A DNA stretch of 64,000 nucleotides from an uncultured Oscillospiraceae bacterium (GTDB taxonomy: Bacteria > Bacillota > Clostridia > Oscillospirales > Oscillospiraceae), in assembly GCA_900759385.1 (NCBI GenBank), contig CAAEUZ010000099.1, forward strand, positions 2,629-66,628. Direction: 5' to 3'. The translations under genes and the position numbers were made by a program. The notes under the pieces were generated by a model, which was not told the origin of the DNA, ran no database searches, and was given only the letters and a program-made list of their open reading frames with translations. This document shows, piece after piece, positions 25,168 through 25,238 of this stretch. Each line of letters starts with the position of its first letter. The stretch's first letter is position 1.

Positions 25168-25209
25168 CTGTCTGTCTGTCTGTCTGTCTGTCTGTCTGTC
25201 TGTCTGTCT
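25168..25209. repeat. Tetranucleotide simple sequence repeat (CTGT)10 on the plus strand, (ACAG)10 on the minus strand
   Basis: 42 bp of perfect CTGT repeats read directly from the sequence. Confidence 0.95.
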
Positions 25210-25238
25210 AATTATGGGGTAAAATCCCCGCTTGTCAA
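25210..25238 (-). promoter_or_regulatory. Consensus-like sigma-70 promoter on the minus strand (TTGACA-17 bp-ATAATT), immediately followed by the tetranucleotide repeat and reading into the S-layer operon
   Basis: The minus-strand -35 TTGACA corresponds to plus-strand 25233-25238 and the -10 ATAATT to 25210-25215, with a 17-bp spacer. Confidence 0.5.

Follow-up and report, generated by a model that had tools for sequence, protein, structure and literature searches.

A simple sequence repeat (SSR) of ten GACA units lies at 25168-25209, on the minus strand, of a 64,000-nucleotide stretch of DNA from an uncultured Oscillospiraceae bacterium (the window), directly behind a promoter and ahead of an operon coding for a secreted SLH-anchored surface protein. 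The tract is clearly hypervariable between lineages, and the locus is likely, from the comparison of its relatives, an SSR contingency locus. We give an even chance to the reading favoured here, in which (GACA)n is a contingency-type slippage repeat, carried in a leader cassette, that would dial the expression of the operon rather than turn it strictly ON or OFF. An earlier inspection of the letters of the window, called here the sequence-only reading, had proposed phase variation acting through the leader and not through promoter spacing, a proposal partly supported by the present analysis. The tract may switch reversibly, and the locus stands as a phase-variation candidate. All features described below are on the minus strand unless the plus strand is named.

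The ten-copy tetranucleotide microsatellite of the sequence-only reading was confirmed with Tandem Repeats Finder (TRF) as a perfect period-4 array at 25168-25209, corresponding to (CTGT)10.5 on the plus strand; the span of 25168-25238 given there takes promoter and repeat together. The minus strand reads TA-(GACA)10-GG, in the longer context CTCTTGACAAGCGGGGATTTTACCCCATAATTA(GACA)10GGATAAGTCTGTCCTTTTCTGCTGCG. A 20-nt (GACA)5 probe had 0 matches in 100 dinucleotide shuffles of the window, and the only other tracts that a regular-expression scan for mono- to octanucleotide units found in the 64 kb were (GC)5 and one 3-copy hexamer, so that nothing comparable stands beside the tract and the claim that it is the sole microsatellite of the window holds. 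Tetranucleotide tracts of at least 5 copies were absent from 1.28 Mb taken from 80 related Oscillospiraceae genomes. The tract shows the perfect unit of 1-8 nt, and the length well above chance, of SSR contingency loci. It begins 2 nt past the -10 of the promoter, upstream of the gene of the secreted SLH/Ig-like protein, a position where its length could alter the expression of a surface gene.

Related loci were gathered by exact-protein look-ups (LysR, oxidoreductase, SLH protein and small-ORF variants, ORF standing for open reading frame) together with one metagenome pattern scan. About 45 public assemblies carry the leader, and the tracts spanned in them had n = 3, 4, 5, 7, 8, 10, 11, 12, 13, 14, ~19 (18.75) and 24, with flanks 81-100% identical across the assemblies; n = 3 was the smallest allele anywhere among those compared. 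Copy-number polymorphism among close relatives with conserved flanks, as expected of a contingency locus, is seen in the n = 4 allele of locus L114 and the n = 3 alleles of L110 and L115, which are one unit and a single flank mismatch apart. The comparison of strains that the sequence-only reading had proposed as a check thus gave a range from 3 to at least 19 within conserved flanks, and the tract is the slippage substrate that it was taken for, with a copy number varying widely among assemblies of near-identical flanks. All tracts were perfect but for one interruption, in L006, and this near-universal perfection suggests ongoing slippage. At least 7 contigs terminate within the tract or have an N gap after it, and the breaks within the tract hint, indirectly, at length change within populations.

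The value of n = 14 (56 nt; L005, L010 and L151) occurred in SPAdes-type assemblies and is the smallest multiple of 4 that reaches k-1 when k = 55; the sister contigs L105 and L106 break off once 54 nt of repeat, exactly k-1 at that k, have been read. In the same way n = 24 (96 nt) occurred only in one 'scaffold_' assembly set, where it corresponds to a read or k limit of ~96 nt and where L006, L008, L100 and L101 have either n = 24 or an N gap. Both values are probably assembler ceilings, hence lower bounds. Short-read assemblies cut or break the locus, and the real tracts may be longer.

The promoter next to the tract, P2 (25211-25238), reads TTGACA-16-CATAAT and exhibits 11 of the 12 consensus matches, with the -35 at 25238-25233 and the -10 at 25216-25211. 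The promoter proposed in the sequence-only reading is therefore real as a pattern, but it parses better in this way than as TTGACA-17-ATAATT. P2 aligned with the single promoter of the SSR-free relatives L118 and L122 (CAAAACCC..TTG.CAAGC.GG), and the P2 region ACAAAAACCCTCTTGACAAGCGG...CATAAT with the promoter region of the SSR-free branch, CCCCAAAACCCCTTGCAAGCTGG...TATACT. Among the haplotypes, substitutions in P2 were confined to the spacer, except for one -35 change in L102. Since the single promoter of the SSR-free branch aligns with it, P2 is likely the ancestral and functional promoter, with the repeat at its predicted transcription start site (TSS). The P2 spacer (25217-25232) also holds a small inverted repeat, GGGGATTTTACCCC, of which the variants GGGGATTTAACCCC and GGGGGTTTAACCCC retain the G4/C4 arms.

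We found also a second promoter-like site, P1 (25303-25331; TTGCCA-17-TATAAT), again with 11 of the 12 consensus matches, 93 bp upstream of P2 and absent from the sequence-only reading. Where the spacer and the flanks have diverged, P1 still shows its hexamers (TTGCCA, TTGCAA or TTGTCA, followed by TATAAT) at the 17-nt distance, and it is probably a real promoter too. With respect to either promoter, P1 or P2, the tract lies past the -10 and is not an SSR of a promoter spacer; as had been argued before, it cannot alter the -35/-10 spacing. Most likely the repeat lies in the transcribed 5' leader. Its position relative to the predicted P1 and P2 fits a leader SSR of the uspA2 type, between a TSS, here predicted, and the start codon.

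In this leader, a GAGGAGG Shine-Dalgarno (SD) sequence at 25268-25274, missed in the sequence-only reading, stands 7 nt before an ATG at 25260, which opens an upstream ORF (uORF; 25027-25260, 77 aa at n = 10, predicted also by gene callers) containing P2 and the repeat. It ends at a TGA that overlaps the GTG of the small ORF, the first gene of the operon, by 14 nt. The 4-nt unit is located inside this putative SD-ATG uORF but in neither the SLH gene nor the small ORF. Allele A, that of the window, has the long frame at n = 1 mod 3; allele B, in which the segment between the hairpin and the terminator described below is 5 nt shorter and substituted, has it at n = 0 mod 3. In both alleles the long frame crosses the terminator and ends at the same TGA overlapping the GTG of the small ORF, and another frame halts at a TAA immediately past the repeat. 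Alleles A and B differ in the frame of the peptide that follows the repeat, and the three uORF peptides had no exact match in the protein collection. In one assembly, L008 (4016-4112), the 48 nt of P2 are replaced by 12 extra GACA units; because the total length equals that of L007 and the sister assemblies hold N gaps, this was taken as a gap-filling artefact and was not used. If real, it would be a natural deletion of P2 leaving the uORF in frame.

Two hairpins follow the promoters. The last two repeat units pair with GTCTGTC around the loop AGGATAA in a 7-bp hairpin (25156-25176), after which comes CTTTTCT; it is kept in all alleles, with a 4-nt deletion of the loop in L134 that leaves both stems intact. 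Further on, between the repeat and the genes, a strong intrinsic-terminator-like hairpin of 19-20 bp with 14 GC pairs, plus TTTTT (25062-25114, the paired part at 25114-25072), was detected by terminator scan, folds and inverted-repeat search and had been missed in the sequence-only reading. It is identical in nearly all alleles, and its pairing probability was ~0.97 at every repeat number. In L109 (26-450), where the leader is diverged, the repeat and the 5' hairpin are the same and the substitutions in the terminator arms still pair; a different ORF (MTRRFFIEGL...) stands there in place of the small ORF ahead of the SLH gene. The Rfam covariance models gave no match at E<=1 in 22000-29000, so that the leader belongs to no known class of riboswitch or leader RNA.

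The leader behaves as a portable cassette. About 520 bp, bounded by the P1 -35 and the signal peptide (window ~25331-24800), are common to loci with unrelated upstream DNA at 81-95% identity (alignment, BLAST), in the order P1, SD-ATG uORF, P2, (GACA)n, 5' hairpin, strong terminator, small membrane-protein ORF and signal peptide. The cassette was found in at least 4 unrelated upstream contexts and n varies within every one of them. Among the genes upstream of it are those of a tRNA-U5 methyltransferase and of a large serine recombinase, and a sigma70_r4-like gene; the context of the last, in which a MobA/VirD2 relaxase and a 1574-aa SNF2 helicase lie downstream, resembles an integrative and conjugative element (ICE). 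Mobile-element neighbours, either a large serine recombinase directly upstream or the sigma70_r4-like context, were observed in L116 (whole locus), L113 and L146-L152. The surface-protein genes and the leader cassette ahead of them seem to be carried by ICE-like elements; a scan of viral contigs for the leader cassette found nothing. In L113 the small ORF is missing, and the stop of the uORF overlaps the ATG of the surface protein as ATGA.

In the small-ORF branch at 64-66% identity (L118-L133) the SSR, the SD-ATG uORF and the strong terminator are all missing. More generally the SSR-free relatives lack P1, the uORF, the SSR and the strong terminator, and all four co-occur only in this leader family. 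A 45-nt hairpin insert is present in L118 and absent from L122, at the same site past the -10 as the repeat, and this site seems to tolerate inserts. At the place equivalent to the terminator of the window the relatives carry short A4-GGC..GCC-T4 palindromes; these were not scored as sense-strand terminators, and the claim that the leader terminator is conserved across the whole small-ORF family was dropped. Other branches (L135-L144) exhibit different leaders and extended -10 promoters, with no SSR.

The effect of the copy number on the leader RNA was modelled by RNAfold for P2 transcripts of n = 3 to 24, with the TSS set 7 nt past the -10. Both the 5' hairpin and the terminator formed at every n, and the total free energy was constant for n>=8. 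The 5' single-stranded tail was 0 nt at n = 3 and grew by 4 nt with each added unit, and the ribosome-binding site (RBS) was somewhat less accessible at n = 3 (0.15 vs 0.37, allele A). The dial would work as follows. Slippage at the tract would gain or lose GACA units. P2 transcripts would begin inside the tract, because it begins 2 nt past the -10 of P2, so a change of unit number would leave the promoter spacing and the remaining leader fold alone and would alter solely the length of unstructured (GACA) RNA ahead of the first hairpin. In Firmicutes a 5'-terminal stem-loop shields mRNA from 5'-end-dependent decay. At n = 3 the P2 transcript would open directly with the hairpin, which would protect it from such decay, and each extra unit would add a 4-nt single-stranded 5' tail, the length of which may tune the stability or the yield of the transcript. 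It is because of this known protection, and of the position of the hairpin at n = 3, that a length-dependent dial is preferred; the RNA-stability mechanism and its effect on expression are what we infer from the modelled folds and from analogy.

Several points weigh against such a dial. P1 transcripts would carry 93 extra nt at their 5' end, which would blunt any effect of the 5' tail, and the position of the P2 TSS is itself a prediction. A very strong terminator stands between the repeat and the genes. The predicted RNA structure is unchanged with n for n>=8, so that an effect of length would need another origin than folding. Furthermore, assemblies with identical 350-nt flanks, some of which may derive from the same samples, always share n (n = 5 in 7 assemblies, n = 10 in 3 and n = 3 in several), and because such haplotypes share one copy number the modal n appears fairly stable within haplotypes.

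The uORF offers another way for the tract to act, namely a frame-dependent switch on P1 transcripts, in which each 4-nt slippage would shift the uORF frame; we hold it unlikely, though not negligibly so. In the ON frame ribosomes would cross the 19-bp terminator and stop at the TGA overlapping the next start, so that termination would be prevented and/or translation coupled, and in the OFF frame they would stop at the TAA just past the repeat and the terminator would form. Candidate parts for such a switch are present: P1 matches the consensus at 11 of 12 positions and has kept its hexamers in diverged contexts, GAGGAGG lies 7 nt before the ATG at 25260, and P1, uORF, SSR and strong terminator are confined together to this leader family, all four missing from the SSR-free relatives. 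The long frames of alleles A and B, at different n mod 3, share the TGA overlapping the GTG of the small ORF, and even without the small ORF the ATGA overlap of the uORF stop with the surface-protein start is retained in L113. The n = 3 alleles mostly have the long frame, and 3 of the 5 substitutions in the uORF codons ahead of the repeat are synonymous, which is not significant. The distribution of frames, however, looks random, with ~7 long, 4 third-frame and 5 truncated among the reliable haplotypes, and 3:3:3 for n>=7 (ceiling counts excluded). The n = 5 allele, widespread with 8 assemblies, has the truncated frame and would be permanently OFF, and the peptide past the repeat, read in different frames in A and B, is not conserved as protein. 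A 50-codon open frame ending at an AT-rich RBS is not improbable in GC-rich DNA, and P2, homologous to the ancestral promoter, is located inside the uORF and would give transcripts without its start codon. Ribosome-mediated transcription attenuation is moreover uncommon in Firmicutes. The fuller form of this idea, a phase-variable attenuator in which slippage would decide whether ribosomes melt the terminator and then reinitiate at the overlapping start codon, we regard as rather improbable. If true, a single SSR would be an ON/OFF, or ON/OFF/intermediate, switch for a mobile cassette pluggable before different surface-protein genes, including those of conjugative elements; we know of no SSR-controlled, ribosome-mediated antitermination switch described so far.

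Alternatively, the microsatellite may be functionally neutral, a piece of hypermutable DNA hitch-hiking in a recombining leader cassette with no meaningful effect on expression, and this too we consider unlikely. The insensitivity of the predicted RNA structure to n at n>=8 fits neutrality, the short alleles (n = 3 and n = 5) are common and apparently viable, and the stable modal n within haplotypes agrees with it. Yet no other long perfect tetranucleotide tract occurs in the window or in 1.28 Mb of relatives, and tracts of n>=10 persist in each of the at least 4 diverged contexts. The position of the tract, 2 nt past a conserved -10 and before a diversifying surface protein, is moreover the classic signature of a contingency locus in the Moxon/Bayliss framework (via PMC11868660).

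A DNA operator at the end of the tract is very improbable. In this proposal the inverted repeat GACAGAC-N7-GTCTGTC would be the operator of a dimeric repressor and n would set its distance from the TSS, the putative operator overlapping +1 at n = 3 and shifting downstream as n rises. The 7-bp inverted repeat is indeed invariant in all alleles, and regulator genes lie upstream in several contexts (LysR, sigma70_r4-like) or code for HTH_26/HTH_3 proteins in relatives; but these upstream regulators differ by context while the element stays identical, and the 4-nt deletion of L134 falls between the half-sites and leaves the stems intact, a change that an RNA hairpin tolerates and a spacing-dependent dimer operator would not. 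An invertible segment was rejected, the only flanking inverted repeat being one of 11 nt (25131-25141/25339-25349) with arms that are replaced in allele B or in other contexts.

The operon behind the leader begins with the small ORF (24879-25040), which codes for 53 aa with a charged N-terminus and one hydrophobic helix, from a GTG start with the RBS GGAAAGGGGG. The small ORF of the sequence-only reading is thus present, but with 53 aa from GTG 25040, as gene callers and 53-aa homologues indicate, more likely than with the 79 aa read there from ATG 25118, a reading that would cross the terminator hairpin. It has 156 homologues of 50-62 aa and no Pfam match, and every homologue that was looked up directly precedes the gene of an SLH/Ig-like protein. 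In the loci looked up, members of this small-protein family (window copy, P0001-P0120) are always translationally coupled to, and just upstream of, the SLH/Ig-like surface-protein gene. In the window the second gene (22448-24877) starts 1 nt past the stop of the small ORF and codes for an 809-aa secreted SLH-anchored surface protein, with a signal peptide, He_PIG, Big_2 and Flg_new_2 domains and C-terminal SLH domains. These domains agree with the SLH surface protein of the sequence-only reading, in which the designation S-layer protein was overstated. The mature N-terminal domains are unrelated between loci with near-identical leaders and signal peptides (window, L007, L108, L111, L114 and L116), which suggests that these domains are exchanged like cassettes where the signal peptide ends, or else diversify under strong selection.

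Upstream of the leader are located the gene of a LysR regulator (26272-25382) and that of an oxidoreductase with its own terminator (28355-26373). The GC content drops from 0.63-0.67 to 0.44-0.55 around the repeat and leader region, and the homology with other loci ends upstream at ~25325-25340; the repeat had been put at the left edge of a low-GC island, which is approximately right, but the homology break is ~100 bp upstream of it. From 25382 to ~39000 extends a low-GC (0.44-0.51) metabolic island with genes for LysR, an OYE/pyridine-nucleotide-disulphide oxidoreductase, two Fe-alcohol dehydrogenases, TRAP DctM, an aldo-keto reductase with a 4Fe-4S domain, an MFS transporter, an ADP-forming acyl-CoA synthetase and IclR. 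The LysR protein was 100% conserved in 410 blocks of the protein-position index, with human-gut assemblies among those read, and no relative of it was found in any GTDB species representative; the island upstream of the leader is accessory. On the plus strand, adjacent to the SLH gene and convergent with it, genes for an epimerase/dehydratase, a nucleotidyltransferase and an APH-family kinase (19124-22299) recall LicC/LicA-type genes for the decoration of cell-wall polymers. The window matches the metagenome-assembled genome GCA_938029295.1. Since the neighbouring core genes have at most 79% identity to Flavonifractor sp. An306 and at most 77% to Pseudoflavonifractor phocaeensis, the host is an uncultured member of the Oscillospiraceae. 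In the 80 loci of related species obtained by a scan for neighbours of the APH gene, neither the SLH operon nor the leader nor a tetranucleotide SSR was present; these loci were used solely as background and to place the host.

SSR contingency loci are textbook features of mucosal pathogens (Haemophilus, Neisseria, Moraxella, Campylobacter, Mycoplasma), and phase variation in gut Clostridia has been ascribed almost wholly to invertible DNA. Whether the apparent restriction of SSR loci to pathogens is a database bias has been asked in a review (PMC11868660). The present locus provides an SSR supported by population comparison in abundant uncultured human-gut Oscillospiraceae, in a portable cassette placed before diversifying SLH-anchored proteins. 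If the length of the repeat tunes expression, it would give commensals a heritable and reversible variation of a surface antigen, adhesin or phage receptor. The locus should be easy to follow in metagenomes, with the caveat that short-read assemblers truncate or break the tract.

Among known systems, Haemophilus influenzae lic1A (CAAT) and lgtC (GACA) are intragenic tetranucleotide switches with the repeat in the 5' end of the main ORF. The present locus shares with them a tetranucleotide unit, the same GACA in the case of lgtC, slipped-strand mispairing, an association with surface-structure genes and the period-3 frame shifts (framework in PMC11868660). Unlike in lic1A and lgtC, the repeat is located outside both real genes and only within a hypothetical uORF, the frames of which show no enrichment. 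SSRs near the promoters of surface genes are also present in H. influenzae hif (TA), Mycoplasma vlp (poly-A) and Moraxella catarrhalis uspA1 (poly-G) (PMC7302503); in these the repeats lie between or upstream of the hexamers and alter transcription, whereas here the tract is downstream of the -10 of both candidate promoters. In Clostridioides difficile, the switch of cwpV is a recombinase-driven inversion of 195 bp flanked by inverted repeats (PMC2784873). The two loci have in common a host among the Clostridia, a cell-wall-anchored surface protein, variable DNA between promoter and ORF and an intrinsic leader terminator as the proposed effector, and the CwpV protein is antigenically variable between strains (PMC2784873). 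In contrast to cwpV, no conserved inverted repeats flank the variable element, which is an SSR.

Moraxella catarrhalis uspA2 (Attia & Hansen 2006, cited and measured anew in PMC7302503) likewise has a tetranucleotide SSR behind the promoter region and ahead of the start codon, again in a surface gene. In both loci the copy number differs between strains (13-18 in uspA2) and the -35/-10 spacing is unaltered (PMC7302503). The AGAT(n) repeat of uspA2, 132 bp upstream, led to graded changes in mRNA, 3.4-fold between 17 and 19 repeats in one strain and modest in another (PMC7302503). The effect in uspA2 is graded and not ON/OFF (PMC7302503), and the dial proposed here would act in the same manner. 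The hosts differ, a Gram-negative respiratory pathogen for uspA2 and an uncultured gut Oscillospiraceae here, and so does the architecture, since the tract abuts the -10 and the predicted TSS inside a possible uORF, with a strong terminator and a co-translated small ORF downstream. By its repeat unit, position and variation, the locus is likely an SSR contingency locus closest to uspA2 of Moraxella and unusual for gut Clostridia.

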